NCBI GenBank assembly: GCA_947455145.1
Contig: CANGME010000011.1
Location: 60,182 to 124,181, forward strand
Source: Comamonadaceae bacterium
GTDB taxonomy: Bacteria; Pseudomonadota; Gammaproteobacteria; Burkholderiales; Burkholderiaceae_C
DNA length: 64,000 nucleotides
Direction of reading: 5' to 3'
Part shown: one piece after another, positions 10,865-29,871 of the stretch
Numbering within the stretch: position 1 is the first letter of the stretch
Layout of the letters: each line of letters begins with the position of its first letter
Position numbers and translations under genes: made by a program
The notes under the pieces: model-generated
What the model saw: the letters and a program-made list of their open reading frames with translations, nothing else
What the model was told of the DNA's origin: nothing
Databases searched by the model: none

Positions 10865-11188
10865 TCAGCCGAACTTCTCTAGCAAGCGGGTGGAGCGCTC
10901 AACCTCGCTGATGGCTTGTGCATCATCTTTGGAGTCGTACACCGCCTCCATGAGTGAGCAAGCCATCATCCGGTAGAAGGCCTTGTCCATCGCTTTGCGG
11001 GCGGCCGACATCTGCAAGGCGATGTCTTCACAGGAGCGTCCGCCCTGAATCATCTCGACCAGGCCGCGCACTTGCCCTTCAATCCGGCGCAAGCGGTTGA
11101 CCACATCTTTTTGATGGTCAGCCCGAAAGGTTGATGAGTTTGTTGGATTTTCGGCGACGGTTTTTGGGTTTTTGCTTGCCATAGACAT
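10865..11188 (-). CDS. CsoR/RcnR/FrmR-family (DUF156) transcriptional repressor, two-Cys His-less variant (CstR-like?)
   Basis: 107 aa with the family core RLRRIEGQVRGLVEMI. The only Cys residues are C53 (GRSCEDI) and C77 (RMMACSL). R73 sits where Cu(I)-CsoR has its His ligand. Confidence 0.8.
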   Translation of the reverse strand: MSMASKNPKTVAENPTNSSTFRADHQKDVVNRLRRIEGQVRGLVEMIQGGRSCEDIALQMSAARKAMDKAFYRMMACSLMEAVYDSKDDAQAISEVERSTRLLEKFG

Positions 11189-13762: not shown

Positions 13763-14746
13763 TTACTTAGCCCGTGACACAGATTCCATCGGGCGCTTTT
13801 CTTGAGCCCATTGGTGCATAGAGCCGTCGTACAGCTTGGTTTGCTTGTTGCCCAGCACTTCAGACATCACAAACCAGGTGCCTGAAGCTTGATGGCCGGT
13901 GTTGCAGTAGGCGATGGTGTTGGCTTGGGGGTCGGCGCCACTCATCTTGAATATGTCGCGGTACGTGTCGCTGGTCATCAACCGGGCTGCATCACCGCCT
14001 TGGCTTGACATCAAGGTGGTGGGCACGTTTTTGGCACCTTGTAGGTGGCCATAGGCACTGACTGAGCCCGGCTTGCTCAGGCCCAGAAACGTGGCGTTGT
14101 CGCGCGCGTCGATCAGTTGCGATTTGGCATTGAGCGCTTTTTCCACGTCGTCCGATGTCGCCATCAGCTCGGCGCTGCGGTCGGCTTTGGCAGCCCACGT
14201 TCCCTCACCCGCCTTGACGGGTGCGGTGCTCACATCGCGCCCCTCGCCAATCCAACCTGCCGTGCCGCCATTGAGCACGGCAATGTTGTCCTCGCCGTAC
14301 ACTTTGAATTGCCAGTATAGGCGCGCGGCATCGTTGAAATCAATCGGCTCCATACCGGCAGACACGATCACCACGGGGCGATTGGCTTGGACGCCCCAGG
14401 ACCGCACCAGCTTTTCAAAGTCTGCACGTTCGGGAAGCATGCCGCTGAGTTTGAGGCCATTGATGACGCGTTCGACCCGCACCTTTTTGTTGTCCACCGG
14501 CACCGCATCCGCAATGTGGCCGCCCAGTTCGACCAGAAATTTCTTGCCGGTTTTTTTGTCGGTCTCGAATTCAGGCGTAAGCGTGAACGATTTTTGATTT
14601 GAGCGCACATCGAGTACGGTGACTTCGGCCCGGTTCTTGGCCAGCCACTCACCATCGACGACAGGGCCGGGTACTTGAAGGGCCAGAGCCCACTGGGTCA
14701 GGCCGAGCAGGGCGGCGCCTGCGATATATCGAATCTGCATTTTCAT
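13763..14746 (-). CDS. Periplasmic tandem-rhodanese sulfurtransferase
   Basis: 327 aa. Signal peptide ...LTQWALA. Active-site loop YCNTGHQASG in the C-terminal rhodanese domain. Confidence 0.85.
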   Translation of the reverse strand: MKMQIRYIAGAALLGLTQWALALQVPGPVVDGEWLAKNRAEVTVLDVRSNQKSFTLTPEFETDKKTGKKFLVELGGHIADAVPVDNKKVRVERVINGLKLSGMLPERADFEKLVRSWGVQANRPVVIVSAGMEPIDFNDAARLYWQFKVYGEDNIAVLNGGTAGWIGEGRDVSTAPVKAGEGTWAAKADRSAELMATSDDVEKALNAKSQLIDARDNATFLGLSKPGSVSAYGHLQGAKNVPTTLMSSQGGDAARLMTSDTYRDIFKMSGADPQANTIAYCNTGHQASGTWFVMSEVLGNKQTKLYDGSMHQWAQEKRPMESVSRAK

Positions 14747-15411
14747 GAGGAACTCCTAGATTGAGGTGAAGATGAAACCGGAGCCACAAGTTGCAGGGCA
14801 TCTTGCGGCCAATGAATGAATTTTGAACACCAGACCGCGACCCGGCGGTCGGCCCAGGCCTGTTGGCTGCTGAGGCTGTGACGCGTGCAATAGTGGGCTA
14901 GAGCTTCGTCCCGTTCCAGTAGTAGCTGGCGCAAGTCCTCGGCATAGAAGCGAACCATGTCGGCCAGCCACAGCGCCGCACCAGCCAGCGGCCCGCGTAA
15001 GTTCAATTCGATGGCCTGCAGCTTGCGCGTCAGCGGGTCGGCGTCCATCCAACGTTCGCCAGTGACCCACTGGTTGGGGGCAAACCAGCGCAGAGGAATC
15101 CCTTTGCTGTCCAGGGATAGACCTGTCAGGTGAGACAGTCTGCCTTGAGGGTCGCGTCGGAACAAATGAATATGTCCATGCTCTTGGTTGAGTGGTGCAG
15201 GGGCGCTCTCAGCCGGGTCGTGCGCATGAAAGTAGAACTGCCAATGACCTGTGCTATCCATGGCGTCGTGACGCGGATAATGTTGCCAGATTTCAAAACG
15301 ACGACTGCGCCCGATAAAGGGATGCAGCAGCGAGCGGCCCTGCTGTGCCAAGCGCAATTGACGCCCCAGCGCGCTGCGGGCAGCGTCTTCACGCGAAACG
15401 AGTGTGCTCAC
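14743..15411 (-). CDS. Hypothetical cytoplasmic His-rich protein
   Basis: 222 aa with a GTG start and no signal peptide. Motifs HWQFYFHAH and EHGHIHLF. 4-nt overlap with the rhodanese start. I cannot name a family. Confidence 0.6.
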   Translation of the reverse strand: MSTLVSREDAARSALGRQLRLAQQGRSLLHPFIGRSRRFEIWQHYPRHDAMDSTGHWQFYFHAHDPAESAPAPLNQEHGHIHLFRRDPQGRLSHLTGLSLDSKGIPLRWFAPNQWVTGERWMDADPLTRKLQAIELNLRGPLAGAALWLADMVRFYAEDLRQLLLERDEALAHYCTRHSLSSQQAWADRRVAVWCSKFIHWPQDALQLVAPVSSSPQSRSSS

Positions 15412-15450
15412 TGGGTGCGTTGATCTGGAGTCGATTGGTCTTAGGGCACT

Positions 15451-15753
15451 TTACCGGGTCTTGCCCGCACAAGGGTTGTCACCACCGCTTCTACGGCGTG
15501 ACTTGCCCGCGCAAGGGTTATTGGATTCGTCCCCACCCGAGCGCTTGCGGCTACCGGCACAGGGGTTGCCCGCACAAGGGTTGTCGCTGCGGTTGCGGCG
15601 TTTGGTTGCGGCGCAGGGGTTGCCAGCGGCACAGGGTGCTGCGGTTTTGGCGGGCGCGTCAGCGGCCAGTGCTTGGGGCGCGACGGGTACGGTCAAGAGG
15701 GTCATGGCCAGTGCGGATACCAGCGAACCGAGATGCTTGCGAGAATTTTTCAA
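15451..15753 (-). CDS. Secreted (N/A)PCA-repeat cysteine-rich basic mini-protein
   Basis: 100 aa. TTG start with a GGAG RBS 7 nt upstream. Signal peptide MKNSRKHLGSLVSALAMTLLTVPVAPQALA. The mature part is APCAAGNPCAA..NPCAGNPCAG..NPCAG..NPCAG separated by R/K/S/G spacers. It is co-directional with the operon. Confidence 0.6.
   Translation of the reverse strand: MKNSRKHLGSLVSALAMTLLTVPVAPQALAADAPAKTAAPCAAGNPCAATKRRNRSDNPCAGNPCAGSRKRSGGDESNNPCAGKSRRRSGGDNPCAGKTR
15463..15640. repeat. Six imperfect copies of GC[AG]CA[AG]GG[GT]T (coding repeat of the mini-protein)
   Basis: Read directly, e.g. gcccgcacaagggttg, gcccgcgcaagggtta, ggcacaggggttgcccgcacaagggttg, gcgcaggggttgccagcggcacagggtg. Confidence 0.8.
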
Positions 15754-15806
15754 GTTTCAACTCCAGAGAAAAAACGGATGTGATTGTGATGAGTAAAGCG
15801 CAGCCA

Positions 15807-16385
15807 TCAGGCTAGGGCGCTTTGTCGCGCCCTGCGCTCAAACCAGCCACCCAGATAGAACACGCCAACAGCAGCGGCGACCAGCACGGCTAACACCATC
15901 CATTCGGGCACGCCGAGCAGCTCAGGCAGGCGGTCGCCTTTGGTCAATTCGCCCGCAGTCGTGAGCGGCTCCAGCATAGGGAACAGGCTGGCAAAGGCAA
16001 AGGTGCCGATCAGGATGCCCACTAAAAACACCAATGCATCAATGCGACCAGTCATCACACCGACCGCTGATGTCCCCGGGCAGTAGCCCCCGACGGCAAA
16101 GCCAGCGCCAATCAATACGCCACCAGCGGCCACCGCCCACATGTAAGGAATGGGCACATAGATCGAGGCGGGATCGACCCAGCCTGCCAGCTCTAACACG
16201 TAGATGCCGACAGCGGCAAAAACAATCGCGGTGAACATGACTTTGAACACCGACCAATCAGTCAACCGGAATTGAGCGGTGAGCTTGCAACCACTACCAA
16301 ACCCAGCACGCTCCAGCACAAAGCCAAACCCCAAACCCAACAACAAGCCCACGACGGGACCACTCGCAGTCATCAGACCGTTCAT
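15807..16385 (-). CDS. YeeE/YedE-family half-transporter (PmpB-like)
   Basis: 192 aa, polytopic. Motifs ERAGFGSGCK and GGYCPGTS are typical of YeeE/YedE sulfur-compound transporters. Confidence 0.85.
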   Translation of the reverse strand: MNGLMTASGPVVGLLLGLGFGFVLERAGFGSGCKLTAQFRLTDWSVFKVMFTAIVFAAVGIYVLELAGWVDPASIYVPIPYMWAVAAGGVLIGAGFAVGGYCPGTSAVGVMTGRIDALVFLVGILIGTFAFASLFPMLEPLTTAGELTKGDRLPELLGVPEWMVLAVLVAAAVGVFYLGGWFERRARQSALA

Positions 16386-16915
16386 TTCACACCTCCACCC
16401 GTCAGTCGCGAAACAATCAATCCGGATACAAAAAATGCACCCAAAAATACGAAACCTGCGACGCCCAAGACGGCAGAGCCTGACAAACCAAGTCCACTGG
16501 TACAGCCAGCGGCAATGCGAGCCCCAAACCCTGCAAAAATGCCTCCTGCCAGTGCCTTTAACAAACGCCCAGTCCGCCCCGAGGAGCTGGCCCCCTCAAT
16601 CCGCAAGGCCATGCGCCCGGCCAGTGCCGCTGATATCAAAGCGCCGATGAACACACCCACTACCTGCCAGCTGATCCAGGAAGACAAAACCGAGCCACCT
16701 TCCAACATTGGCCCCAGGTAGTCGTTTGAGGCGGTCCATCCGGGCACAGTTGCGTCACCCAGCCACGCGCTCAGACGGGTGGTGAAACCGGTCGCGCCCA
16801 AACCGTGGCCGGTCAAAACAAAGGTCAATAACAACACCACGCCGAGCGATAGCCCGGCCACTAACGACGACCAATAGGGCTGACGGGGGATTTCACATTC
16901 ATTCAAAATCTTCAT
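16382..16915 (-). CDS. YeeE/YedE-family half-transporter (PmpA-like)
   Basis: 177 aa, polytopic. Conserved AAGCTSG motif. 4-nt overlap with the next half. Confidence 0.85.
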   Translation of the reverse strand: MKILNECEIPRQPYWSSLVAGLSLGVVLLLTFVLTGHGLGATGFTTRLSAWLGDATVPGWTASNDYLGPMLEGGSVLSSWISWQVVGVFIGALISAALAGRMALRIEGASSSGRTGRLLKALAGGIFAGFGARIAAGCTSGLGLSGSAVLGVAGFVFLGAFFVSGLIVSRLTGGGVK

Positions 16916-16942
16916 TTTTTCACCTGGTTTTCAATGGTCGTT

Positions 16943-17434
16943 TCAACTTGATAGTTTTTTGATTGCCGCACGTGCCTGGAGTAATCGCTCGTCCAAATAG
17001 GCACCGTAAAAGTCGGGTATGTATCCGCCCACCATGCGCGCAGCAATCTCCTGCCCGCCTTGGCCAAAGAACAGCACGGTGGGTGCCACCTTGACGCCCC
17101 AAGCACGCCGCATGTCGTCATGGCTCAGGCTGGCTCCGCTGAAGTTCTTCAAAATACGGGTGCTACGCATGTCCACTTGGACGATCGGTAAGCCCTGCTG
17201 CTCGTGCAGCGGACCCAAATAGTTCTCTCTCGCAATCTTGCAAAACGGGCATCCGTCCAGGCTGATCATCACTACCAGGGGCTGTTGCTTTTTCAATGCG
17301 AGTGCCAACTCATCTTGCAAAGAGAGCGCCAAAGGCAGGCTGGCTGGCGCGGCGAATGCTAAGCCACTGGCATAAACACCCGCCGTGGCTGCAAACAATT
17401 GACGTCGTGAAAGTAGTAGGGTCGAAGACATCAC
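16943..17434 (-). CDS. Tat-exported thioredoxin-fold protein (SoxS/SoxW-like)
   Basis: 163 aa. Twin-arginine signal LLSRRQLFAATAG...AFA. Redox motif CPFC. Confidence 0.75.
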   Translation of the reverse strand: MMSSTLLLSRRQLFAATAGVYASGLAFAAPASLPLALSLQDELALALKKQQPLVVMISLDGCPFCKIARENYLGPLHEQQGLPIVQVDMRSTRILKNFSGASLSHDDMRRAWGVKVAPTVLFFGQGGQEIAARMVGGYIPDFYGAYLDERLLQARAAIKKLSS

Positions 17435-18390
17435 CGGGTCTCCTGCTCCATCAGGATGTAGGTGTTGTAGGCATTCATGCGGTTGGCCACCTTGAACAAC
17501 GGCAAATGCTCAAAAGGTGTCCAGTCGGTTGCGGCATAGGCTTCCTCGAAGGGGTCCATATTTTTGGCCGCGCGTTCCATGGCGGCGCGAAGATAGACCA
17601 GATAGTCGCGGGTGAGTTGCATGTCCTTGCGCGCTTCTTCGGAAAATGGACCATGGCCTGGCACGATGATTTGAGCATCAAACGCGAGCAGTTGCTCCAA
17701 GGCTGCAATCCAATGCCTGCTGTCGGCCTGCCCAACATAGGGGATGCGGCTACGAAACACCAGATCGCCTGCAAAGAGTACTTTTTCCTGGGGCAGATAG
17801 ATGACCAAGTCTTCGGGCGTGTGCGATGGCCCCACCGGTTTGATTTTGAAAACAATGCCACCCACAGTTAAATCCTTGGGGCCATCAATCCATTCATCGG
17901 CTTGCACCAGATGGGTGTCGGCATTCACCCAGGGTGCGAGGTCTTTTCTTGATACTTCCAGCCGCAACCGCGCCGTTTCTGAGTTGAGGTATTCACGGGC
18001 TGCCTGGTGGGCCACGATGCGGGCGCCTAGGGCCTTGAACGTCTGAAGGCCATAAACGTGATCGGCGTGGTAATGCGTCACGATGACGTGGGTGATGGGT
18101 AGCGGCGTGACCTTGTGAATCTCCTCCACAAGCCGGGATGCCAATGCAGGTGAACCCAGGGCGTCAATCACGACCACACCGGTTTGGGTCACCACAAAGC
18201 CGGCATTCGAGATGAAATTTTGGTTGGCCGGTGACCCCAGCGCGGAGACGCCTTCCACATACCAGGCCGAAGCCGACACCTTTTTCGCCACCATGGCAGG
18301 CGCATCTTCGGCGCAGGCCAAGGAGGCACTCAAGACGGCCAACGATGCAAGGATGCAGCGCTGCCAAAAATTATTCCTGATCACTGTCAT
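17431..18390 (-). CDS. Exported metallo-beta-lactamase-fold hydrolase (SoxH-like)
   Basis: HxHxDH motif THYHADHVYG. Signal peptide MTVIRNNFWQRCILASLAVLSASLACA. ATG at 18390 is preferred (GGGGAAG RBS) over the track GTG at 18435. Confidence 0.8.
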   Translation of the reverse strand: MTVIRNNFWQRCILASLAVLSASLACAEDAPAMVAKKVSASAWYVEGVSALGSPANQNFISNAGFVVTQTGVVVIDALGSPALASRLVEEIHKVTPLPITHVIVTHYHADHVYGLQTFKALGARIVAHQAAREYLNSETARLRLEVSRKDLAPWVNADTHLVQADEWIDGPKDLTVGGIVFKIKPVGPSHTPEDLVIYLPQEKVLFAGDLVFRSRIPYVGQADSRHWIAALEQLLAFDAQIIVPGHGPFSEEARKDMQLTRDYLVYLRAAMERAAKNMDPFEEAYAATDWTPFEHLPLFKVANRMNAYNTYILMEQETR

Positions 18391-18453
18391 ACAGCTTCCC
18401 CGCAGACTGAATGTGCCACTTTCGCGCAGTGACACTCATTACAAATAAAAAAT

Positions 18454-18487: not shown

Positions 18488-18526
18488 CTTAACAACTTGG
18501 CGCTAATATAAGCTATTGTTGAATTA

Positions 18527-19639
18527 ATGAGAAGCCACATGGATCTGTCAAGTATTCTTGAGCGCTATGGAAATAGTGCGGTTCTGGCCTTGGGCGGGCT
18601 GGTCATCGGTTTTTTGTTCGGTTTTTTGGCCCAACGTTCAAAGTTCTGCCTGCGGGCTGCCGTTATCGAATTTTGGCATCGCAAATTTGGTGAAAAGCTC
18701 TCCGTGTGGTTGCTTGCGTTTTCCAGTGCGGTGGTTGGGGTTCAACTCCTCATCTTGATGCATTCGCTGGATGTCGGTGCAGCACGCCAGATTGCTGCAC
18801 GCGGCAGCCTCTCGGGCGCGTTGATCGGTGGCCTGCTGTTTGGCGCTGGCATGATCATGACGCGGGGTTGCGCCAGCCGTTTGCTGGTTTTGTCAGCCAA
18901 TGGCAATTTGCGAGCGCTGCTGTCTGGGCTGATTTTTGCCGTTACGGCACAAGCGGCACTCTCAGGCGGACTGGCACCTCTGCGCAGCACCATCAGTGCG
19001 TGGTGGACCGTCGAGGGCGGCCCATCGCGTGATCTGCTGGCCATTGCTGGCGTCGGCCACTGGGGTGGGCTCCTGGCTGGACTGGTCTGGTTCGTGGCGG
19101 CTCTGTTTTTTTCCATTCGAAGTGGTGGCGGATTCTGGAAATGGGTGGGCGGCATCGGTACGGGTCTGACGATTGCTGCAGGTTGGTGGTACACCTACCA
19201 AGTCTCGTCCAGTTCGTTCGATGTTGTGCAGGTTCAGGGGTTGACCTTCAGCGGCCCGTCCGCAGAGTGGCTGATGCGTGTGCTGGCGGCGACAAGCCCC
19301 GTGATCGGTTTTGATTTTGGACTGCTGCCGGGTGTGTTTGTTGGCTCCTTCATGGGAGCCTGGTTCGGCAAGGAGCTGAAACTTGAAGGCTTCAATGACG
19401 GCTACAGCATGCGACGCTATATCGGAGGTGCTATCTTGATGGGGTTTGGGTCGATGCTGGCAGGCGGCTGCGCCGTTGGCGCTGGCATGAGTGGTGGATC
19501 TGTTTTTGCGCTGACGGCGTGGATGGCACTCGTTGGCATGTGGGTTGGTGCTGGCATCACTGACCGGTTGATGGACAGTGCGACCTCTAGTTACGAGAAC
19601 CGCGTCAAAGGCTCCATTGCCAACATGAAAGCGCCTTGA
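18527..19639 (+). CDS. Full-length YeeE/YedE-family sulfur-compound transporter
   Basis: 370 aa, polytopic. Conserved Cys motifs SKFCLRAA, TRGCASR, AGGCAVGAG. The start could instead be the ATG at 18539. Confidence 0.85.
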   Translation: MRSHMDLSSILERYGNSAVLALGGLVIGFLFGFLAQRSKFCLRAAVIEFWHRKFGEKLSVWLLAFSSAVVGVQLLILMHSLDVGAARQIAARGSLSGALIGGLLFGAGMIMTRGCASRLLVLSANGNLRALLSGLIFAVTAQAALSGGLAPLRSTISAWWTVEGGPSRDLLAIAGVGHWGGLLAGLVWFVAALFFSIRSGGGFWKWVGGIGTGLTIAAGWWYTYQVSSSSFDVVQVQGLTFSGPSAEWLMRVLAATSPVIGFDFGLLPGVFVGSFMGAWFGKELKLEGFNDGYSMRRYIGGAILMGFGSMLAGGCAVGAGMSGGSVFALTAWMALVGMWVGAGITDRLMDSATSSYENRVKGSIANMKAP

Positions 19640-19747
19640 TCCGCGTTGACAGAGGCGGTAATTAGGGTTTTTGCTAGGTGTTTTTTTTTGTAATGTAAGT
19701 ACATTCGCATTCAGTTATGTTTTGTAGCCATTTGAAAGGGTATCCAC

Positions 19748-20065
19748 ATGCGAATTAACTATCGGCTCCCAGCCATGTTGCTGTTGGCATTGGCCGCAGG
19801 CCATGCCACGGCCCAAAGTGCGACCACATTAAACGTACGTAGCTTGGCCGCGACTTGCGCCACTTGTCACGGCACAGAGGGACGTTCGGTCAACGGTTCT
19901 GCGATCGTGGGGCTGGCCGGTATGCCGCGTGACTACATGCTGACGCAGTTCAAGGCATTCAAGGATGGCAGCCGCCCTGCGACCGTGATGCATCAACTGG
20001 CCAAAGGCTATACCGAGCAACAGCTCGATGCCTTGGCCACCTATTTTTCTACCTTGAAGCGCTAA
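19748..20065 (+). CDS. fccA: Flavocytochrome c sulfide dehydrogenase, mono-haem cytochrome subunit
   Basis: 105 aa. Signal peptide. One CATCH motif. It lies immediately upstream of the flavoprotein subunit. Confidence 0.75.
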   Translation: MRINYRLPAMLLLALAAGHATAQSATTLNVRSLAATCATCHGTEGRSVNGSAIVGLAGMPRDYMLTQFKAFKDGSRPATVMHQLAKGYTEQQLDALATYFSTLKR

Positions 20066-20078
20066 GCAGGAGCTCACC

Positions 20079-21359
20079 ATGATGAAAAGACGCAGTTTTG
20101 TAGGTGCATCCCTCACCCTGGGTACCCTGGGCAGCCTCGTGGGTTGTGCAAGCACGGGCACTATTCCTTCCAAAGCCAAAGTGGTGGTGATCGGCGGCGG
20201 CTACGGCGGAGCCACGGCCGCCAAATATGTGCGGATGTTGTCGGATTACAAGATCGACGTGGTGTTGGTCGAGCCCAACGCCAGTTTTATCTCGTGCCCC
20301 ATTTCCAATCTGGTGATCGGCGGCTCCAAGACCATGGGGGACATTACAACCCCCTATGACAATCTGGGCGGCAAACACGGCGTGACCCTGGTCAGAGACA
20401 TGGTGAGCAGCATCGATTCAAACAAGAAAACCGTCACGCTGTCGGGCGGCGCAACCATCGGCTATGACAAGCTGATCGTCTCGCCCGGCATTGACATGAT
20501 GTGGGGCAGCGTAGAAGGTCTGCAGGCCGCCAACGCTTCAGGTCAGATCCTGCACGCATGGAAGGCCGGGGCTGAAACCATTGCCCTGCGTAAACAGCTC
20601 GAAGCCATGCCTGATGGTGGTGTGTACGCCCTGTCCATCCCGCTGGCCCCTTACCGCTGCCCGCCCGGCCCTTATGAGCGCGCCAGCCAAGTGGCCTCTT
20701 ACTTTAAGCAATTCAAGCCCAAATCCAAAGTGCTGATTCTGGACGCCAACCCGGATGTGACGTCCAAAGGGCCGTTGTTCAAAAAATTCTGGGCTGACAA
20801 CTACAAAGGCATGTTGGAGTATCACGGCGGCCACAAGGCGATTGCCGTAGACGCCAAGACCAATACAGTGAAGTTCGAAGTGCAAGACGACGTCAAGGCA
20901 AACGTGCTTAATGTGTTGCCCAATATGAGTGCCGGTGCCATCGCCGTGCGATCCGGTCTGGCCAACGCTAACGCTCGTTGGTGCAATGTGAACTACTTGA
21001 CGTTTGAATCCACCGTTGCCAAGGATTTGCACGTCATTGGAGACTCGGTGTTGGCTGCGCCGCTAATGCCCAAGTCGGGTCATATGGCTAACTCGCAGGG
21101 CAAAGTGGTGGCGGCCGCTGTGGTGGCGCAGCTCTCAGGTATTGAAGTCAACCCGAACCCTGTGTTGACCAACACTTGCTACAGTTTTGTCAACGACAAA
21201 TTGGTCGTGCACGTGGCCTCAGTTCACCAGTATGTGGCGGCTGAGAAAACCTTCAAGGCCGTGGCGGGTTCGGGGGGGGTGTCGCCTGGCCCAACCGAGC
21301 TGGAAGGTGCATACGCCATGAGTTGGGCACACAACATCTGGGCGGACACTCTCTCTTAA
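20079..21359 (+). CDS. fccB: Flavocytochrome c sulfide dehydrogenase flavoprotein subunit (FccB/SoxF)
   Basis: 426 aa. Tat signal MMKRRSFVGASL. Rossmann motif VVVIGGGYGGATAAKY. FCSD-like CPISNLV. Confidence 0.9.
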   Translation: MMKRRSFVGASLTLGTLGSLVGCASTGTIPSKAKVVVIGGGYGGATAAKYVRMLSDYKIDVVLVEPNASFISCPISNLVIGGSKTMGDITTPYDNLGGKHGVTLVRDMVSSIDSNKKTVTLSGGATIGYDKLIVSPGIDMMWGSVEGLQAANASGQILHAWKAGAETIALRKQLEAMPDGGVYALSIPLAPYRCPPGPYERASQVASYFKQFKPKSKVLILDANPDVTSKGPLFKKFWADNYKGMLEYHGGHKAIAVDAKTNTVKFEVQDDVKANVLNVLPNMSAGAIAVRSGLANANARWCNVNYLTFESTVAKDLHVIGDSVLAAPLMPKSGHMANSQGKVVAAAVVAQLSGIEVNPNPVLTNTCYSFVNDKLVVHVASVHQYVAAEKTFKAVAGSGGVSPGPTELEGAYAMSWAHNIWADTLS

Positions 21360-21410
21360 CTCTTGCAGCCTGGTTAAATTGCTTAAATTCCACAAATCTT
21401 AGGAGCGGCC

Positions 21411-21824
21411 ATGCTTAAATTTTTATTGGCAGTGCTGCTGATTTGTGGGACGGGCTTGGCTGCGGCCCAGAACGTGAAGGCGGTCTACCACATCAACACC
21501 GATGTGGACACCGTCTCAGCGGTTCTGGGCAACATACGCAACCATCTCAGCGAAGACCCCAAGGCCAAGATAGTGGTGGTCGCGCATGGTCCGGGGATTA
21601 ACTTTCTGTTGCAAGACGCCAAGGATTCACGCGGCCGTGAATTCAGTGGCCCGGTCAGTGACCTGGTCAGCAACGGCGTTGACTTCAGGGTGTGCAACAA
21701 CACATTGACGAGTATGGATATCAACCCGAACCGCTTGCTGATGGAGGCCAGCGTCGTACCATCTGGCGTGGCCGAGATTGCGCGCCTTCAAGCCAAAGAG
21801 GGCTTTGTTTATCTCAAGCCTTGA
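21411..21824 (+). CDS. Exported DsrE/DsrF-like (COG1416-type) protein
   Basis: 137 aa. Signal peptide MLKFLLAVLLICGTGLAAAQ. Pattern VVVAHGPGINFL...FRVCNNTL...VPSGVAEI is typical of the DsrE-like family from memory. Confidence 0.65.
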   Translation: MLKFLLAVLLICGTGLAAAQNVKAVYHINTDVDTVSAVLGNIRNHLSEDPKAKIVVVAHGPGINFLLQDAKDSRGREFSGPVSDLVSNGVDFRVCNNTLTSMDINPNRLLMEASVVPSGVAEIARLQAKEGFVYLKP

Positions 21825-21854: not shown

Positions 21855-22199
21855 TCATTCGGAATCCAAGTTGCCATCAATGGCAATTTGCGTGCAGACC
21901 GTGCGGCACAGATTGGCTACTCGTTCGTTAATGATGCGGTAGTGAATTTGCACGCCTTCGCGGCGCTTGCCCAGCACGCCAGCCTGGTACAGCGTGGTGA
22001 GGTGCTGCGACATATTGGGCTGGGTGGTGTCAATCTTGCTGAGCAAGTAGCTCACGTTCTTTTCTCCATCGCACAGGCAACTGATGATCTTCAGCCGCAT
22101 CGGTGCTGACATGACCCGAAACACTTCTGCGGCCAGTTCGAACACCTGATCGGGCTCAGTCACTTCTTTCGACGACTTCTGGATTGATCTGTTGACCAT
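21855..22199 (-). CDS. soxR: ArsR/SmtB-family repressor (SoxR; SqrR/BigR-like Cys pattern)
   Basis: 114 aa. wHTH region VSYLLSKIDTTQPNMSQHLTTLYQAGVL. Cys at 41/43 and 98/102. Divergent from soxC. Confidence 0.8.
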   Translation of the reverse strand: MVNRSIQKSSKEVTEPDQVFELAAEVFRVMSAPMRLKIISCLCDGEKNVSYLLSKIDTTQPNMSQHLTTLYQAGVLGKRREGVQIHYRIINERVANLCRTVCTQIAIDGNLDSE

Positions 22200-22382: not shown

Positions 22383-23750
22383 GTGATGCAAGATGAATTG
22401 AGCTCGGGCCGCGTCCGCAAGGCCCCCGAGAGTTTTTTGGACAAAGCTGGCATTAAGACCGTGTTTGCAGAGGCGCGGCACGGTCGCCGTGACTTCATTC
22501 GCAGCGCGTTTGCTGCTGCCGCTGCCGGTGCTGCGGTGCCTGCCGCACTGGCGCAGGCTAACCCGGTGCCCAACGAGGGCGGTGACCCCAATATTTTGAA
22601 CCTGCCAGAGCACAGCAAGGGCTTGGGTCAGGGCGTGGCAGCGAATGATGGCTATGGCAAGCCCTCAAAATATGAAGCCAATGTGCAGCGCCGCCAGAGC
22701 CCCGGTCTGACCCAGACCACCCAGGCTTCGGTGTCGTTCGCGCCGTTGCAGTCCTTGTTTGGCATCATCACCCCGAGCGGCCTTCACTTTGAGCGACATC
22801 ACCAAGGCTGGTGGGATATTGACCCTTCCAAGCATCGCTTGATGATTAACGGCATGGTCAAGGCCAACAAGGTGTTTACGCTGGACGAGATCATGCGACT
22901 CCCGTCAGTCTCGCGCTTTCACTTCATTGAGTGCGGTGCCAACACGGCGGTGGATTGGGGCAACGTAGCGGTGCCAACGGTTCAATACACGCACGGCATG
23001 GTGTCGTGCAGCGAGTTCACAGGCGTTCCGCTGATCACGCTGCTGGAGCTGGCGGGCGCGGATTTGAAGAATGGAAAATTTGTGCTGGCCGAGGGCGCAG
23101 ACGGTTCTTCCATGACCCGCACCATTCCCATGGATCTCATCAAGTCGGGCGAGGTCTTCGTGGCCTATGGCCAGAACGGCGAAATGTTGCGCCCTGAGCA
23201 GGGTTATCCATTGCGACTTATCGTGCCAGGTGTGCAGGGTGTGAGCTGGGTCAAGTACCTGCGCCGCCTTGAGGTGGGGGACCAGCCCTACGCGGCCAAG
23301 GATGAGGCCGTTCACTACATTGATTTACAGCCCGGCGGTTTGCATCGGCAGTACACCAGCATTCAGGAATGCAAAAGCGTTGTCACCACGCCTTCTGGTG
23401 GGCAGGTGCTGCTGGACAAAGGTTTCTACAACATTACTGGTCTGGCTTGGTCGGGTCGGGGTAAGGTGAAGCGAGTGGATGTGTCCGTGGATGGTGGGCG
23501 CAATTGGCGCACAGCGCGTCTTGAAGGCACGGTGCAAACCAAGTCGTTGACGCGCTTTAACCTTGACTGGGTGTGGGACGGCAAGCCCGCCATCATTCAG
23601 AGCCGTGCCATGGATGACACGGGTTATGTGCAGCCCACCTACCAACAATTGCGTACCGTGCGCGGTACACGTTCGATCTATCACAACAATGCCATCCAGT
23701 CGTGGTTGGTTGGCGAGTCCGGCGAGGTGAAAAATGTTCAGGTTTCGTAA
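22383..23750 (+). CDS. soxC: Sulfane dehydrogenase molybdopterin subunit SoxC
   Basis: 455 aa. Tat signal GRRDFIRSAFAAAAAG. Sulfite-oxidase-family Moco and dimerisation domains. The start is GTG 22383 or ATG 22386, after GGAG at 22374-22377. Confidence 0.92.
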   Translation: MMQDELSSGRVRKAPESFLDKAGIKTVFAEARHGRRDFIRSAFAAAAAGAAVPAALAQANPVPNEGGDPNILNLPEHSKGLGQGVAANDGYGKPSKYEANVQRRQSPGLTQTTQASVSFAPLQSLFGIITPSGLHFERHHQGWWDIDPSKHRLMINGMVKANKVFTLDEIMRLPSVSRFHFIECGANTAVDWGNVAVPTVQYTHGMVSCSEFTGVPLITLLELAGADLKNGKFVLAEGADGSSMTRTIPMDLIKSGEVFVAYGQNGEMLRPEQGYPLRLIVPGVQGVSWVKYLRRLEVGDQPYAAKDEAVHYIDLQPGGLHRQYTSIQECKSVVTTPSGGQVLLDKGFYNITGLAWSGRGKVKRVDVSVDGGRNWRTARLEGTVQTKSLTRFNLDWVWDGKPAIIQSRAMDDTGYVQPTYQQLRTVRGTRSIYHNNAIQSWLVGESGEVKNVQVS

Positions 23751-24864
23751 AACTCTTCTCAGCGCAGCTCTACTCGCATTTGCCGGTCTTGCTCTTGCAC
23801 AAAGCGGCGGCAAATACCCTGGCGTGGGGCGCGATGCCACACCCAAGGAGGTCGCAGCTTGGGACATCGATGTTCGACCAGACTTCAAGGGTTTGCCTGC
23901 CGGTTCAGGGAGTGTGGCCAAAGGTCAGGACGTGTGGGAGAGCAAGTGCGCCAGCTGCCACGGCATCTTCGGCGAGTCGGGTGAGGTGTTTAGCCCCTTG
24001 GTGGGTGGCACCACGGCAGATGACATCAAGACGGGTCGTGTGGCCAATTTGAATACGACCACATACCCGGGTCGCACCACCTTGATGAAGGTCTCCACCC
24101 TCTCCACACTGTGGGACTACATCAACCGCGCCATGCCTTGGACGGCCCCAAAATCACTGAGCACTGATGAGGTGTATGCAGTGACGGCCTTTTTGCTGAA
24201 CCTTGGCAACATCTTGCCTGATGACTTTGTGCTGTCGGACAAAAACATCGCCGAAGTACAAAAGCGCATGCCCAACCGCAACGGCATGACCACTCAGCAC
24301 GCCCTGTGGCCGGGCAATGAGTTTGGTGCGGGCAAGATTAAGCCCGACACGAAAAACGTGGCCTGCATGAAGGACTGCGTGGCCGAGGCTAAAGTGGCTT
24401 CTTTCTTGCCGGACTATGCCCGTAATGCCCACGGCAACCTGGCCGAGCAGAACCGTCTGGTGGGTGCGCAGCACGGCGCGGACACGACCCGCCCCGAAGC
24501 CAAGCTGGGCGCTGTGGCGCCGTCACCGGTCACTGCTGTTCCTGCTGCGGCACAGAAGCCAGCTCCCGCTAGCAAGCCTGCCAACGCACCCAAGGCCGAA
24601 TCCTCGGGCGTTGACGGAAATGCAGCACTGGCCATGGCACAGAAATACAGCTGCACCGCTTGCCATGGTGTTGATAAGAAGATTGTTGGCCCCAGCTTCC
24701 AAGAAATAGGCAAGAAGCATGCGGGCAAGGTGGACTACCTGGCAGGCAAAATTAAGTCCGGTGGCAGTGGTGTCTGGGGTCCGATTCCCATGCCAGCACA
24801 GGCCCTGGGTGACACCGATGCCAAAACACTGGCGGCTTGGCTGGCTGCTGGTGCAGGAAAATAG
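23734..24864 (+). CDS. soxD: Di-haem cytochrome c SoxD
   Basis: 376 aa. Signal peptide. CASCH and CTACH motifs. Overlaps the soxC end. Ala/Pro linker before the C-terminal c8-like domain. Confidence 0.85.
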   Translation: MFRFRKTLLSAALLAFAGLALAQSGGKYPGVGRDATPKEVAAWDIDVRPDFKGLPAGSGSVAKGQDVWESKCASCHGIFGESGEVFSPLVGGTTADDIKTGRVANLNTTTYPGRTTLMKVSTLSTLWDYINRAMPWTAPKSLSTDEVYAVTAFLLNLGNILPDDFVLSDKNIAEVQKRMPNRNGMTTQHALWPGNEFGAGKIKPDTKNVACMKDCVAEAKVASFLPDYARNAHGNLAEQNRLVGAQHGADTTRPEAKLGAVAPSPVTAVPAAAQKPAPASKPANAPKAESSGVDGNAALAMAQKYSCTACHGVDKKIVGPSFQEIGKKHAGKVDYLAGKIKSGGSGVWGPIPMPAQALGDTDAKTLAAWLAAGAGK

Positions 24865-24926
24865 GGGAACTACGCATTCAGGGTCTGTTTTTTTTCATTA
24901 CCATGTTCTTAATTTAGGAGATATTT

Positions 24927-25385
24927 ATGCAAACTCGTCGCGAGACACTTAAGCAAAGCGCCATCGTTGCAGGCCTATTGGCTTCTACAGGGCTTTTCCC
25001 CCAGTACGCATTTGCCGCGTATAACAAAACCGCCTTTGAGGCCAAATCCTTGGCCGACGTGCTCAAGGCCATTGGCGCAGGCGCCCCTGTCCAGAGCAAG
25101 GACGTCACCATTGGTGGTCCTGACATTGCAGAAAATGGTGCCGTGGTGCCCTTGACGGCCAGCACTTCGCTGCCCGGCGTCAAGCAAATATTGATCCTTG
25201 TCGAGAAGAACCCGGCAGCAATGGTGGCCATGTTCAATGTGACCGACAGCGTTGAAGCGAATTTCGCGACACGCTCAAAAATGGGCCAATCTTCGGACGT
25301 GTATGCCGTTGCCGTGATGAACGATGGCAAAGCACTGTTTGCGAAGAAAGAAGTCAAGGTCACCCTCGGCGGCTGCGGCGGTTAA
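24927..25385 (+). CDS. soxY: Sulfur carrier SoxY
   Basis: 152 aa. Tat signal MQTRRETLKQ. Diagnostic C-terminus ...VTLGGCGG. Confidence 0.93.
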   Translation: MQTRRETLKQSAIVAGLLASTGLFPQYAFAAYNKTAFEAKSLADVLKAIGAGAPVQSKDVTIGGPDIAENGAVVPLTASTSLPGVKQILILVEKNPAAMVAMFNVTDSVEANFATRSKMGQSSDVYAVAVMNDGKALFAKKEVKVTLGGCGG

Positions 25386-25433
25386 TCGGCAGCACCCCCC
25401 CCATCGTTTCAACACAGATTTAGGAGTATCAAA

Positions 25434-25745
25434 ATGGCAGATCCAATGCGCATTCGCGCCCAAGCAGCTGGTGACAAGGCGACCGTCCGTGTCTTGATGA
25501 GTCACGAAATGGAGTCCGGTCAGCGTAAAGATGCCGCCGGCAAAATCGTTCCCGCGTGGTTTATCAATGAAGTGTCCGCCTCGCACAATGGCAAGGTGGT
25601 CATGACCGCCGAGTGGGGCCCCGCAGTATCCAAGAACCCATTTTTGCAATTCGTCGTCAAGGGTGCCAAAGCAGGGGACAAAATTGCAGTGAGTTGGAAA
25701 GACACCAAAGGCGATAGCCGAACAGACGAGGCGACGGTTTCTTGA
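25434..25745 (+). CDS. soxZ: SoxZ
   Basis: 103 aa, no signal peptide, directly after soxY. SoxZ-like MSHEMESG...AVSKNPFLQF. Confidence 0.9.
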   Translation: MADPMRIRAQAAGDKATVRVLMSHEMESGQRKDAAGKIVPAWFINEVSASHNGKVVMTAEWGPAVSKNPFLQFVVKGAKAGDKIAVSWKDTKGDSRTDEATVS

Positions 25746-25802
25746 CCTCATAGTGACCCGGTGCGTGACTTTGCAGCTAGTTCAGAGAACAAAGGTGACA
25801 TC

Positions 25803-26606
25803 ATGAAAATGAAAAAAACGTGGATTTTGATTTTGCTTGCAGGTCTAGGCACTGCGTCAGCTTTTGCACAAAAAAGCGCCTCCGAGTCGATCGACGAATA
25901 CCGTGCCATGTTGGCCGACGGCAACCCGGCCGAGCTCTTTGAAGCCAAGGGCGAAGACCTTTGGAAGAAAAAGCGCGGCCCTAAAAACGCATCGCTGGAG
26001 CAGTGCGACTTGGGCAAGGGTGTGGGCGTGGTCAAGGGCGCATTCGTTGAGCTACCACGTTTCTTTGCCGATGTGGGCAAGATGCAAGACTTGGAGTCGC
26101 GCCTCTTGACCTGCATGCAAACACTGCAAGGCTTCAACACCGCCGAAATCGCGGCAACACCCTTCGGCAAAGGCGAGCAAAACAACGTGACCGCACTGGC
26201 CACTTGGATTGCTGCTGAGTCCAAGGGCATGAAGTTCAACTTGTCACAGTCACACCCTCAAGAGAAAGTGTTTTACGAGGTCGGCAAGCGCCTGTTCTTC
26301 CAACGCGGTGGCGCGCATGACTTTGCTTGTGCTTCTTGCCATGGTGAAGACGGCAAGCGAATCCGTCTGCAAGACCTGCCCAATCTCACCAAGAACCCGG
26401 GTGATGGTGTGGGCTTTGCAGCCTGGCCTGCGTACCGTGTCTCCAACGGGCAGATGTGGGGCATGCAGCAGCGTTTGAACGATTGCTATCGGCAACAGCG
26501 TTTTCCGTATCCCGGTTTTGGCAGCGATGCGATCACGGCCGTCTCCACCTACCTGGGTGTAAATAGCAAGGGTTCGGCTTCAGTTGCACCGGCCCTTAAA
26601 CGCTGA
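25803..26606 (+). CDS. soxA: Mono-haem cytochrome SoxA
   Basis: Track ORF trimmed to the ATG at 25803 (MKMKKTWILILLAGLGTASAFA). A single CASCH motif. SoxA-like C-terminal part. Confidence 0.9.
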   Translation: MKMKKTWILILLAGLGTASAFAQKSASESIDEYRAMLADGNPAELFEAKGEDLWKKKRGPKNASLEQCDLGKGVGVVKGAFVELPRFFADVGKMQDLESRLLTCMQTLQGFNTAEIAATPFGKGEQNNVTALATWIAAESKGMKFNLSQSHPQEKVFYEVGKRLFFQRGGAHDFACASCHGEDGKRIRLQDLPNLTKNPGDGVGFAAWPAYRVSNGQMWGMQQRLNDCYRQQRFPYPGFGSDAITAVSTYLGVNSKGSASVAPALKR

Positions 26607-26620
26607 TCGAGGAGACTTCA

Positions 26621-27271
26621 ATGAAACTTCAATTCAAACTCACCTTGTTGGCCTTGACGGCTGTGGCAGTGGCCGGTTGCGCCAGTAACTACAGCAGTAC
26701 AAATATCGACAAACTGACGGCCGATATGATCAAGGCCGCGTTCCGCGATAAAGGCATTGTCAAGGTGTCAACGCTCGAACAAGACGACGCTACGCGCGAA
26801 TGCAGCGCCGCTGATGCCAATGGCAAACCGATTGACGCCAAGGTTGCCCAAGACATCGAAGCCGCCAACCTTAAAACCATCCAATGGCCGTCTGACGGCA
26901 AGTTCTTAGGTGATTGGAAAGAAGGCGAAAAAATTGCCCAAAATGGGCGTGGCATGACTTGGACGGACGACGCCAAGATGCCGAACGGCGGCAACTGCTA
27001 CAACTGCCACCAGATTGACAAGAAGGAAATTTCCTTCGGCACCATCGGCCCCAGCCTGTACAACTACGGCAAGATTCGCGGCGTAAGCAACCCAGCCGAC
27101 CCAGCGTCCAAGCCTATTGTGGAATACACCTGGGGCAAGATCTGGAACTCCAAGGCCTACAACGCCTGCTCCAACATGCCGCGTGCCGGTCACAAAGGCA
27201 TCCTGACTCAAGCTCAGGTGCGTGACATCGTTGCGTTGCTGCTCGACCCCAAATCCCCCGTCAATCAGTAA
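26621..27271 (+). CDS. soxX: Cytochrome SoxX (predicted lipoprotein form)
   Basis: 216 aa. Lipobox VAGC. CYNCH haem motif. Follows soxA. Confidence 0.85.
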   Translation: MKLQFKLTLLALTAVAVAGCASNYSSTNIDKLTADMIKAAFRDKGIVKVSTLEQDDATRECSAADANGKPIDAKVAQDIEAANLKTIQWPSDGKFLGDWKEGEKIAQNGRGMTWTDDAKMPNGGNCYNCHQIDKKEISFGTIGPSLYNYGKIRGVSNPADPASKPIVEYTWGKIWNSKAYNACSNMPRAGHKGILTQAQVRDIVALLLDPKSPVNQ

Positions 27272-27276
27272 CATCC

Positions 27277-27303
27277 AAAACCCGGCGGGGCCGGGTTTTT
27301 TTT
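27277..27303 (+). terminator. Rho-independent terminator/attenuator between soxX and soxB
   Basis: Stem CCCGGC/GCCGGG with a GGG loop, followed by T8. It starts 6 nt after the soxX stop. Confidence 0.75.
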
Positions 27304-27341
27304 GTTTCATAAATATCAGTAAACACTTAATTGAGTGAGCC

Positions 27342-29250: not shown

Positions 29251-29871
29251 ATGAAGCCCAATAGCAGCATACAGTTCTTCGACAAGCAGTTTCAGCAGCA
29301 AGTACGTAACAGCGACTGTTTGCTCAATCCGTTTGAATTGGCTGCAATTCCTTACCTGACAGGACGGGTACTGGACTACGGGTGCGGTATGGGTAATTTG
29401 GCGTTCGCCGCCGCTGAGCGCGGATGCTCTGTTCTTGCCTTAGATGCTAGCCCTGCGGCAATTGGCCACATTCAAAAGCGTGCCGTAGCAGAGTCTCTTC
29501 CAGTACAAGGCGCGGTTGCCGATCTTCGTGACTTTGAACTGGTGGAAGTCTTTGACGCGGTGGTGTCTATTGGATTGCTCATGTTCTTCGACTGCCCCAC
29601 AGCATTCAAGGCTTTGTCGAATCTACAAGCCCACGTTCGTGAAGGTGGAGTGGCAGTAATCAACGTCTTGGTGGAGGGCACAACGTACCTGGACATGTTC
29701 GACACCGAGGGCCATTGCCTCTTCTCTCGCTCGGAGATGGAGGCGCGCTTTGCTGGCTGGAGAATTCTGCACTCTGCGTTCAATGACTTTGAGGCACCCG
29801 GAGGAAAGAACAAGGCTTTCGTCACCGTTATCGCACGCAAACCGAGTGCCCAGCACGGAAATTCGGTCTAA
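29251..29871 (+). CDS. Class I SAM-dependent methyltransferase (TehB-like)
   Basis: 206 aa. SAM motif I VLDYGCGMGNLAF. Visibly lower GC than its neighbours. Confidence 0.8.
   Translation: MKPNSSIQFFDKQFQQQVRNSDCLLNPFELAAIPYLTGRVLDYGCGMGNLAFAAAERGCSVLALDASPAAIGHIQKRAVAESLPVQGAVADLRDFELVEVFDAVVSIGLLMFFDCPTAFKALSNLQAHVREGGVAVINVLVEGTTYLDMFDTEGHCLFSRSEMEARFAGWRILHSAFNDFEAPGGKNKAFVTVIARKPSAQHGNSV

Follow-up and report, generated by a model that had tools for sequence, protein, structure and literature searches.

Two modules in one sox-accessory operon: a secreted NPC-repeat peptide and its constant neighbour DUF6969 beside a split YeeE/YedE channel

The route by which sulfane sulfur made in the periplasm by Sox and FccAB reaches the cytoplasm, and the sensing of sulfane sulfur by SoxR-type regulators, are acknowledged gaps (PMC11582611, PMC13122954). 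A seven-gene operon at positions 13763-18390, minus strand, of a 64,000-nt stretch of DNA from a Comamonadaceae bacterium (GenBank assembly GCA_947455145.1, contig CANGME010000011.1, positions 60,182 to 124,181; hereafter the window) raises the question of what task could join two exported thiol or metal proteins, a YeeE/YedE channel in two halves, a small secreted cysteine-repeat protein, a cytoplasmic histidine-rich protein of the DUF6969 family and a secreted rhodanese. Comparison with related loci showed that the operon is a fusion of two separable modules, namely a gene pair for a metallo-beta-lactamase-fold (MBL) hydrolase and a thioredoxin-fold protein (MBL-Trx) and a core of five genes, and that the oldest and most constant association in it is the one between the small secreted protein, which carries N-P-C repeats, and DUF6969. 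The seven open reading frames (ORFs), all on the same strand, tightly packed and verified in the sequence, are the following:

17431..18390, minus strand: secreted MBL-fold hydrolase, SoxH-like (longest ORF 17431-18435, from GTG 18435)
16943..17434, minus strand: Tat-exported thioredoxin-fold protein with a CPFC motif (Thioredoxin_2; twin-arginine motif)
16382..16915, minus strand: YeeE/YedE half A, the C-terminal half of full-length proteins (Sulf_transp profile)
15807..16385, minus strand: YeeE/YedE half B, the N-terminal half with one extra helix (Sulf_transp profile)
15451..15753, minus strand: Sec-exported basic NPC-repeat mini-protein (TTG start, GGAG upstream)
14743..15411, minus strand: cytoplasmic DUF6969 protein with a histidine cluster (PF22308)
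13763..14746, minus strand: Sec-exported tandem rhodanese of the thiosulfate/3-mercaptopyruvate sulfurtransferase (TST/MST) type (two rhodanese domains)

Domain calls were taken from Pfam and NCBIfam searches of the operon proteins, and export signals were assessed by eye and by hydropathy. Start and stop codons overlap at three junctions, as GTGA at 17431-17434 (where the ATG at 17431-17429 is an alternative start) and as ATGA at 16382-16385 and 14743-14746; the remaining gaps are 27, 53 and 39 nt, the last of them between the peptide gene and the DUF6969 gene. Terminator-like matches inside the operon, located within coding sequence, were not above the shuffled expectation (11 versus 6.7 +/- 2.5). 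To judge from this layout, the seven genes are likely carried on one transcript. The MBL gene likely starts at ATG 18390 rather than at GTG 18435. The rhodanese is identical in a public metagenome-assembled genome (GCA_947374525.1, CANCCI010000001.1), where independent gene calls gave the same 177-, 192-, 100-, 222- and 327-aa products for the five genes inspected. The gene content, topology, packing, overlaps and gaps proposed from the letters alone in an earlier examination (the sequence-only reading) were therefore borne out by ORFs, domains and junctions.

Related loci were gathered through DUF6969 homologues from genomes and metagenomes, and all proteins of the window were mapped by tblastn onto 86 loci. 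The nearest relatives were in Curvibacter, Hylemonella, Rhodoferax and Polaromonas. Of the 80 best-matching species genomes, 53 retain the core order of half A, half B, DUF6969 and rhodanese, with DUF6969 identities as low as about 33%; among the carriers are Polynucleobacter, Roseateles, Ideonella, Hydrogenophaga, Tibeticola, Macromonas and Duganella. Except in two of the core loci examined, half B and DUF6969 are separated by a short ORF with NPC repeats and a signal peptide; in these two the ORF picked automatically was not clearly an NPC peptide. The complete seven-gene arrangement recurs in our loci L001, L007-L014, L016 and L171, and the synteny elsewhere on which the sequence-only reading had staked its proposal thus exists in many genomes. 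The single seven-gene module of that reading stands for the conserved five-gene core and does not extend to MBL-Trx, which immediately precedes the core in just 13 of the 53 core loci. A Polaromonas contig (L170) carries ArsR-DsrE-FccBA-SoxT, a divergent MBL-Trx, a second MBL gene and soxCDYZAXB and has no core, and other Polaromonas genomes (L017, L019) carry the core alone. Since MBL-Trx occurs without the core and the core without MBL-Trx, they represent two modules and not one evolutionary unit. The MBL-Trx pair belongs to the SoxR-like/DsrE/FccAB/SoxT block, as an ArsR-DsrE-FccAB-SoxT block accompanies it in L001, L007-L014, L016, L170 and L171. In Rhodoferax sp. BAB1 (CP054424; L001:7311-8444) the gene of a methyl-accepting chemotaxis protein lies between the thioredoxin gene and half A, and this insertion falls precisely at the boundary of the two modules.

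Sulfur genes are frequent around the core. The sox core genes were found within 10 kb in 15 of the 53 core loci, and sox, ArsR, DsrE, FccB or SoxT-like genes in the flanks of 33; in Polynucleobacter the module, with the rhodanese gene last, is directly followed by an ArsR gene and then by soxCDYZAXB. Accessory gene sets linked to sox that comprise a YeeE-type transporter, a sulfurtransferase, a thioredoxin and SoxH are already known. The five-gene module itself is not described in the literature searched, where no description of the gene combination, of DUF6969 or of the NPC-repeat motif strings was found, in agreement with the earlier impression that the combination was new.

The mini-protein has five NPC(A)(G/A) repeats, and its mature part of about 69 aa contains 6 cysteines and has a net charge of +9. 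No other NPC-repeat ORF occurs in the 64-kb window. Among the 26 close homologues of the mini-protein none carries a name; a signal peptide was seen on every homologue, and no Pfam or NCBIfam family was matched, even by the longer alphaproteobacterial versions at E<=10. The following gene product gave DUF6969 (PF22308) as its only Pfam match, with 156 bits against a gathering cut-off of 27, and has no hydrophobic segment. In an alignment of 64 diverse members of this family, which comprises 648 clusters at 50% identity, H62, H64, H80, H82, H94, W115 and V116 were invariant and H44, P46, D49 and E77 nearly so; C175 was conserved in the close clade only and not family-wide. In the species-genome set, a DUF6969 relative is encoded by at least 595 stretches. 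An AlphaFold2 (AF2) model of high confidence (pLDDT 94.4, pTM 0.89) placed the histidines on consecutive beta-strands. Foldseek found no match to this model in the PDB (best E=0.37), and a profile of the 64 members gave, against PDB sequences, nothing better than an unrelated helical stretch (E=0.07). A cupin assignment, to which the HxH...HxH pattern might have led, had no support in these structure and profile searches. Apparent domain fusions were likewise discarded, as the long members proved to be tandem copies, one protein with DUF2007, or mis-called starts. In three DUF6969 representatives (P0134, P0147, P0160) the false N-terminal extension came from out-of-frame reading of the NPC-peptide gene upstream, so that this gene is probably annotated too rarely in public records.

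The linkage of the two genes was examined in a sample of 160 loci (1.72 Mb), with an NPC-repeat ORF defined as one having at least three NPC triplets within 60 residues. Among 100 such ORFs, 79 were located no more than 500 nt upstream of a DUF6969 gene on the same strand, a zone that makes up 2.3% of the strand space; counted from the other side, 79 of the 160 DUF6969 loci had an NPC-repeat ORF so placed. Distant DUF6969 members (29-35% identity) from Alphaproteobacteria, Coxiellaceae and Legionellales had no YeeE or tandem rhodanese gene nearby, and at many of their loci a Sec-signal peptide with NPCAA or CNPCNPCAA repeats was encoded immediately upstream on the same strand. Pairs of this kind without YeeE were seen in Coxiellaceae, Parvularcula and Rhodospirillales loci, 80 metagenome loci taken as a second, independent sample agreed with this, and the N-P-C triplet was strictly kept across classes. 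The pair has no counterpart among the annotated families searched. That DUF6969 is paired with a secreted peptide even where the channel is missing points either to a direct relationship between peptide and enzyme or to a shared task that is independent of the channel. This distribution does not suit the role of a cytoplasmic acceptor at the end of a relay through the channel, which had been assigned to DUF6969 from the sequence, as the most constant neighbour is the NPC peptide, also without YeeE; the simple acceptor is the weakest step of the relay proposal. In two metagenome loci (L127:322-1254, L153:3093-3905) a larger secreted protein is encoded upstream of DUF6969, in which NPCAAK repeats flank a domain with the CxxCH haem-binding motif.

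Sec-signal precursors with cysteine repeats that are modified by a cytoplasmic metalloenzyme are known from bufferins and oxazolins (PMC12452194). These systems of ribosomally made peptides that are modified after translation (RiPP systems), with an MNIO enzyme of DUF692 and a DUF2063 protein, have the same layout as the pair described here, a gene for a small Sec-signal Cys-repeat peptide immediately upstream of the gene of a cytoplasmic His-rich metalloenzyme, which in the present pair is a putative one, and both are widespread in Pseudomonadota. However, DUF6969 shows no relationship to DUF692 in either sequence or predicted fold, the motif here is NPC(A/G)x instead of EGKCG or the bufferin cysteine pattern, Pfam searches detected no DUF692 or DUF2063 gene in the operon, and there is no DoxX gene either. 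The pairing without the channel, the strict N-P-C triplet and the precedent of bufferins and oxazolins together favour a direct relationship between DUF6969 and the peptide, and the five invariant histidines of DUF6969 with E77 and D49, taken together with the strict triplet, would fit an enzyme and its substrate.

The other members of the core point to sulfur. Half A (177 aa, four transmembrane helices predicted by hydropathy) matches positions 176-308 of the Sulf_transp profile (PF04143) and half B (192 aa, five helices) positions 2-150, and their genes overlap by 4 nt. Half A aligns to residues 239-319 of the YeeE of S. thermophila (6leo) and to residues 269-348 of a full-length YeeE that is also encoded in the window, with the cysteine of its GC(T/N/A)xG motif in register: AAGCTSG in half A, AGGCNIG in 6leo (taken by position as Cys293 of TsuA) and AGGCAVG in the full-length protein. 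Half B aligns with the N-terminal part of 6leo and with residues 24-154 of the full-length YeeE (GGYCPG against TRGCAS). Equivalents of TsuA Cys91 and Cys293, conserved at 98-100%, are present in the split pair; half A C138 is conserved at 98%, half B C102 at 100% and half B C33, which aligns with the first cysteine of the full-length YeeE, at 75%. The halves of PmpAB have about 130 aa, four helices and one conserved cysteine each (PMC11582611), and the split pair departs from this in length (177 and 192 aa), in helices (4+5) and in the two cysteines of half B. The split channel recognised in the sequence-only reading is hence confirmed as two Sulf_transp halves, and it is not a plain 4+4 pair of the PmpAB type, having 4+5 helices and three cysteine positions.

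A nine-helix split channel of this kind is not described in the literature searched. The YedE1E2/PmpAB systems of Cupriavidus pinatubonensis, Sinorhizobium and Serratia (PMC10812762, PMC11582611) also consist of two adjacent Sulf_transp half genes with the C-half-like gene first, have their cysteines in GC-x-G motifs and adjoin ArsR-type regulators and sulfur genes; their partners are persulfide dioxygenase (PDO)/Blh, whereas here they are a secreted peptide, DUF6969 and a secreted rhodanese. SoxT1/SoxT2 and TsuA share with the split pair the total of nine helices, the three cysteine positions, the sox locus and the SoxR-type repressor, but here there are two polypeptides in permuted gene order, and the other strand carries, at a distance of 140 nt, a separate full-length SoxT-like gene. 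The sulfur that YeeE-like SoxT proteins import serves oxidation or signalling to SoxR (PMC11582611), and the split YedE1E2 of Cupriavidus and Sinorhizobium imports zero-valent sulfur, for which two cysteines are required (PMC10812762). By obvious analogy with YedE1E2, the split pair may import zero-valent sulfur.

Rhodaneses carry sulfane sulfur on a catalytic cysteine. In the rhodanese of the operon two rhodanese stretches were recognised by Pfam, thiosulfate sulfurtransferases gave the best matches among PDB sequences (E about 1e-25), and C281, in the YCN(S/T)GH loop of the C-terminal domain, is 100% conserved. A Sec-type signal peptide followed by LPGPVV was found in all of about 60 aligned homologues. 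Sud, PspE, YnjE, SoxL and ExtH are likewise secreted rhodanese-domain proteins with a catalytic cysteine and thiosulfate or polysulfide as substrates; the present protein differs from them as a two-domain TST/MST-type enzyme with a loop of its own, below the ExtH cut-off and with a weak match to YnjE.

In the other module, the MBL protein (Lactamase_B, 98 bits in Pfam) has a classical di-metal site, with HxHxDH, H190 and H246 conserved at 100% in 25 homologues, and a Sec-type signal that is conserved in the homologues. It agrees with the description of SoxH in its secreted fold, its di-metal HxHxDH site and its sox locus, with soxC 4 kb away. It is nearest to class B beta-lactamases and to SoxH-related models, but it scored below the SoxH-related NCBIfam cut-offs (SoxH_rel_PQQ_2, 185 versus 280 bits; SoxH_rel_PQQ_1, 160 versus 300), and no model of SoxH proper was among the NCBIfam matches listed. 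An antibiotic-resistance function was rejected, the scores being far below the curated cut-offs. The thioredoxin-like protein matched Thioredoxin_2 with 26 bits, just under the cut-off of 27; its SRRxLL twin-arginine motif is conserved and C62/C65 (CPFC) are 100% conserved. Its AF2 model (pLDDT 82) has a thioredoxin fold, and Foldseek matched it to generic thioredoxins, DsbD-gamma, DsbH and a thioredoxin-fold protein of H. pylori. As an exported thioredoxin fold with CxxC in a sox locus it agrees with the description of SoxS/SoxW. A specifically SoxS-type thioredoxin, as named in the sequence-only reading, could not be demonstrated: phmmer against PDB sequences at E<=1 returned only DsbD-gamma and no SoxS structure, and no SoxS entry was among the 50 best Foldseek matches. 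The signals in this operon are of the Sec type in the MBL protein and of the twin-arginine type in the thioredoxin; Paracoccus SoxH is a Tat substrate. A periplasmic MBL protein and a CxxC thioredoxin-fold protein beside sox, with a DsrE-like protein, are found also in the Paracoccus-type soxH and soxS/soxW set and in the dsrE-soxW-soxH set of Campylobacterota (PMC10045233), whereas here the thioredoxin lacks specific SoxS similarity and the pair is fused to the five-gene core in one operon. A sulfate-releasing role, speculative, has been proposed for a SoxH-type protein in Sulfurovum (PMC10045233). As assumed for soxH and soxS/W, the pair would probably serve the repair or recycling of periplasmic thiol carriers. 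Paracoccus has a soxG/soxH pair, which is brought to mind by the second MBL-fold gene of L170 (L170:8639-9577), located between MBL-Trx and soxC on the opposite strand.

The overall picture that we favour, tentatively and short of calling it probable, is that of a composite sox-accessory unit which handles periplasmic sulfane (zero-valent) sulfur and in which DUF6969 acts on the peptide. We infer the chemistry of all the steps. First, the secreted tandem rhodanese would take sulfane sulfur from thiosulfate or polysulfide onto Cys281, as expected from its family. The basic NPC-repeat peptide could then be the periplasmic thiol partner of the rhodanese or a carrier, and the split nine-helix YeeE/YedE pair would move zero-valent sulfur inward through its conserved cysteines, as YedE1E2 does. 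DUF6969, a putative cytoplasmic His-cluster metalloprotein, would most likely modify or prepare the cysteines of the peptide before Sec export; as MNIO enzymes act on bufferin precursors with Sec signals, so DUF6969 may be the dedicated partner of the NPC peptide and is probably not merely a passive acceptor of sulfur. Sulfane-sulfur capture and import as the role of the operon is, taken by itself, plausible.

Several observations weigh against this picture. The peptide gene is directly upstream in only 16 of 80 distant DUF6969 loci, and within 4 kb in 27 of 80. Where the peptide is absent, the neighbours include secreted FGE-sulfatase-domain proteins (7 proteins in 21 genome loci and 15 in 80 metagenome loci), small rhodaneses (5 and 8, respectively) and, in the metagenome loci, c-type cytochromes (8) and a SoxA/TsdA-type domain (2). 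Since distant loci have these other partners, modification of the peptide cannot be the only role of the DUF6969 family. In 20 of the 53 core loci no sulfur genes were found in the 10-kb flanks. With SoxCD present, complete oxidation of thiosulfate is possible in the periplasm, and there is no obvious need for bulk import of sulfur. Moreover, no recognition or partner protein like DUF2063 is present, and no reductant supply for the periplasmic thioredoxin (CcdA/DsbD/SoxV) was found in the ~37 kb of the window covered by the neighbourhood scan (about 0.5-36.6 kb). As to the arrangement of the peptide-less distant loci, the FGE-sulfatase-domain protein, secreted and of about 290 aa, often precedes DUF6969 (L063, L065, L068, L073, L082; 15 proteins in L087-L166); in the genome sample a small rhodanese gene follows DUF6969 on the opposite strand, and DUF2336 is also a recurrent neighbour.

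A bolder form of the proposal, which we consider rather unlikely as a whole, would make DUF6969 a metalloenzyme of unseen fold that modifies the cysteines of Sec-exported NPC-repeat peptides ahead of their export, these being a new ribosomal peptide class widespread in Pseudomonadota, with the Burkholderiales products acting as carriers of sulfane sulfur (or of soft metal) together with the rhodanese and the split YeeE. If DUF6969 does modify the peptide, there would be two independent instances of a cytoplasmic metalloenzyme that matures Sec-signal peptides. The pair joins two families without known function, of which DUF6969 has a confident model without structural relatives. The five-gene module is also a defined candidate for the route of sulfane sulfur into the cytoplasm, and as it occurs in cultivable freshwater bacteria (Polynucleobacter, Curvibacter, Rhodoferax, Hydrogenophaga, Roseateles) the question can be tested by genetics.

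Among the other explanations, a linear relay would have the rhodanese and the peptide capture sulfur and the channel import it, with DUF6969 as the cytoplasmic acceptor or oxidising enzyme, a stand-in for PDO that makes no contact with the peptide. In ~83% of genomes YedE1E2 genes are accompanied by PDO, and operons such as yedE1-yedE2-pdo2 have been described (PMC10812762). The DUF6969 gene is placed after the channel genes, the invariant His/Glu/Asp set would suit a mononuclear non-haem metal site, and small rhodaneses adjoin distant DUF6969 genes. However, loci lacking a YeeE gene still combine DUF6969 with NPC peptides, the protein resembles neither the PDO/MBL fold nor any solved structure, and C175, the cysteine of the close clade, is not kept across the family. 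We regard the relay in this form as unlikely. A persulfide dioxygenase of the ETHE1/Blh/CstB kind in the operon, which would be a cytoplasmic protein of glyoxalase-II-like MBL fold with a His/His/Asp iron site, was rejected, since the sole MBL protein is secreted and DUF6969 is without MBL similarity.

The next explanation depends on the surroundings of the operon, in which the following features were found:

0.5-10.8 kb: Calvin-cycle operon (RuBisCO large and small subunits, AAA activase, FBPase, transketolase, HAD phosphatase, aldolase)
10865-11188: CsoR-family regulator, divergent from the DUF302/FadL-like/cytochrome c operon
11.3-13.7 kb: operon of DUF302, a FadL-like outer-membrane protein and a small cytochrome c
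18505..18526, minus strand: 22-nt element TAATTCAACAATAGCTTATATT, beside the YeeE start in the divergent promoter region that separates the operon from the full-length YeeE gene
18527..21824, plus strand: divergent operon of full-length YeeE (SoxT-like), cytochrome c, FCSD flavoprotein and secreted DsrE-like protein (Pfam)
21855..22199, minus strand: ArsR-family regulator (HTH_5) with the Cys pairs ISCLCDGE and NLCRTVC, SoxR/SqrR/BigR type, divergent from soxC
22383-29075: soxCDYZAXB
29251-29871: TehB-like S-adenosylmethionine (SAM) methyltransferase, directly after soxB

The CsoR-family regulator is without the Cu-ligand histidine four residues before the second cysteine and, by the fingerprint rules for such regulators, presumably resembles the persulfide sensor CstR. 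The operon lies in a cbb-sox island, with the CstR-like regulator on one side and the ArsR (SoxR-like)/soxCDYZAXB block on the other, and belongs to a chemolithoautotrophy island, where its neighbours are recognised sox accessory genes. With soxCDYZAXB, FccAB, a secreted DsrE-like protein, the full-length SoxT-like YeeE, the Cys-bearing ArsR protein and the CstR-like regulator all within 11 kb, the sulfur context is stronger than had been claimed from the sequence. The DsrE-like protein (21411-21824) has an N-terminal signal peptide (MLKFLLAVLLICGTGLAAAQ) and would therefore be periplasmic, which is unusual among DsrE-family sulfur carriers; its gene always adjoins the ArsR gene in related loci.

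All 18 homologous intergenic regions, when aligned, conserve the 22-nt element TAATTCAACAATAGCTTATATT, a candidate SoxR-type operator with a single exact occurrence (0 mismatches) in the window. A related element, ...CTTATATT, was found upstream of the ArsR gene in related loci. It is this second element and the conserved 22-nt element that suggest control of the operon by the ArsR protein. The 22-nt element was absent at <=3 mismatches from the ArsR-soxC intergenic region of the window, where a looser resemblance, ATAATTAAAACGTTATATT, was seen by eye only; because of this missing match, co-regulation by the ArsR protein stays an inference.

The explanation in question is signal transduction, with the operon passing a small sulfane-sulfur signal from the Sox system in the periplasm to a cytoplasmic SoxR-like repressor. 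In Hyphomicrobium denitrificans, SoxT1B is the signal unit for SoxR (PMC11582611), and SoxT1B, SoxS and TusA play this part there; the SoxR of Cupriavidus senses sulfane sulfur only with a functional Sox system (PMC13122954). The ArsR gene of Polynucleobacter between the rhodanese gene and soxC, the conserved operator-like element in the promoter region and the presence of SoxCD, which makes bulk import unnecessary, agree with it as well. However, the full-length SoxT-like YeeE beside the ArsR block is a more obvious signal transporter, in 20 of the 53 core loci neither a regulator nor sox genes lie nearby, and five genes, among them one for a multi-Cys peptide, seem heavy for signalling. It is accordingly an explanation to which we give a low probability.

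Still more doubtful, and in our view improbable, is metal buffering, in which the NPC peptide matured by DUF6969 would be a periplasmic chelator of Cu(I) or another soft metal and the link with sulfur would come about through the cross-toxicity of copper and sulfide. Distant DUF6969 genes adjoin those of FGE-sulfatase-domain proteins and c-type cytochromes, and FGE is copper-dependent. Bufferins and oxazolins are themselves Sec-exported copper chelators with Cys repeats (PMC12452194, PMC11626156). On the other hand, copper-resistance genes of the CopA, CusABC and CueO types are absent from the operon and none was seen in the ~37 kb examined, and the constant partners in Burkholderiales are a rhodanese and a sulfur transporter. 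Moreover, the lack of a Cu-ligand histidine in the nearby CsoR-family regulator, presumably CstR-like, does not favour copper. Lastly, the processing of selenite or tellurite by a YedE-type transporter and an ExtH-like rhodanese was rejected as hardly credible, since the weak NCBIfam matches, 46 bits for the YedE selenium transporter and 64 bits for the ExtH rhodanese, which together with the TehB-like methyltransferase gene after soxB might suggest it, fell far below the curated cut-offs of 350 and 200 bits, and no selD, yedF or selenoprotein genes were seen in a context that is consistently sox, FccAB and DsrE.

Of the genes on the other side of the operon, those for DUF302 and the FadL-like protein, in some cases together with the cytochrome c gene, were again found beside sox or the module in L005, L028, L030, L053, L060 and L077. 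It may be speculated that the FadL-type channel is an entry route for hydrophobic elemental sulfur.

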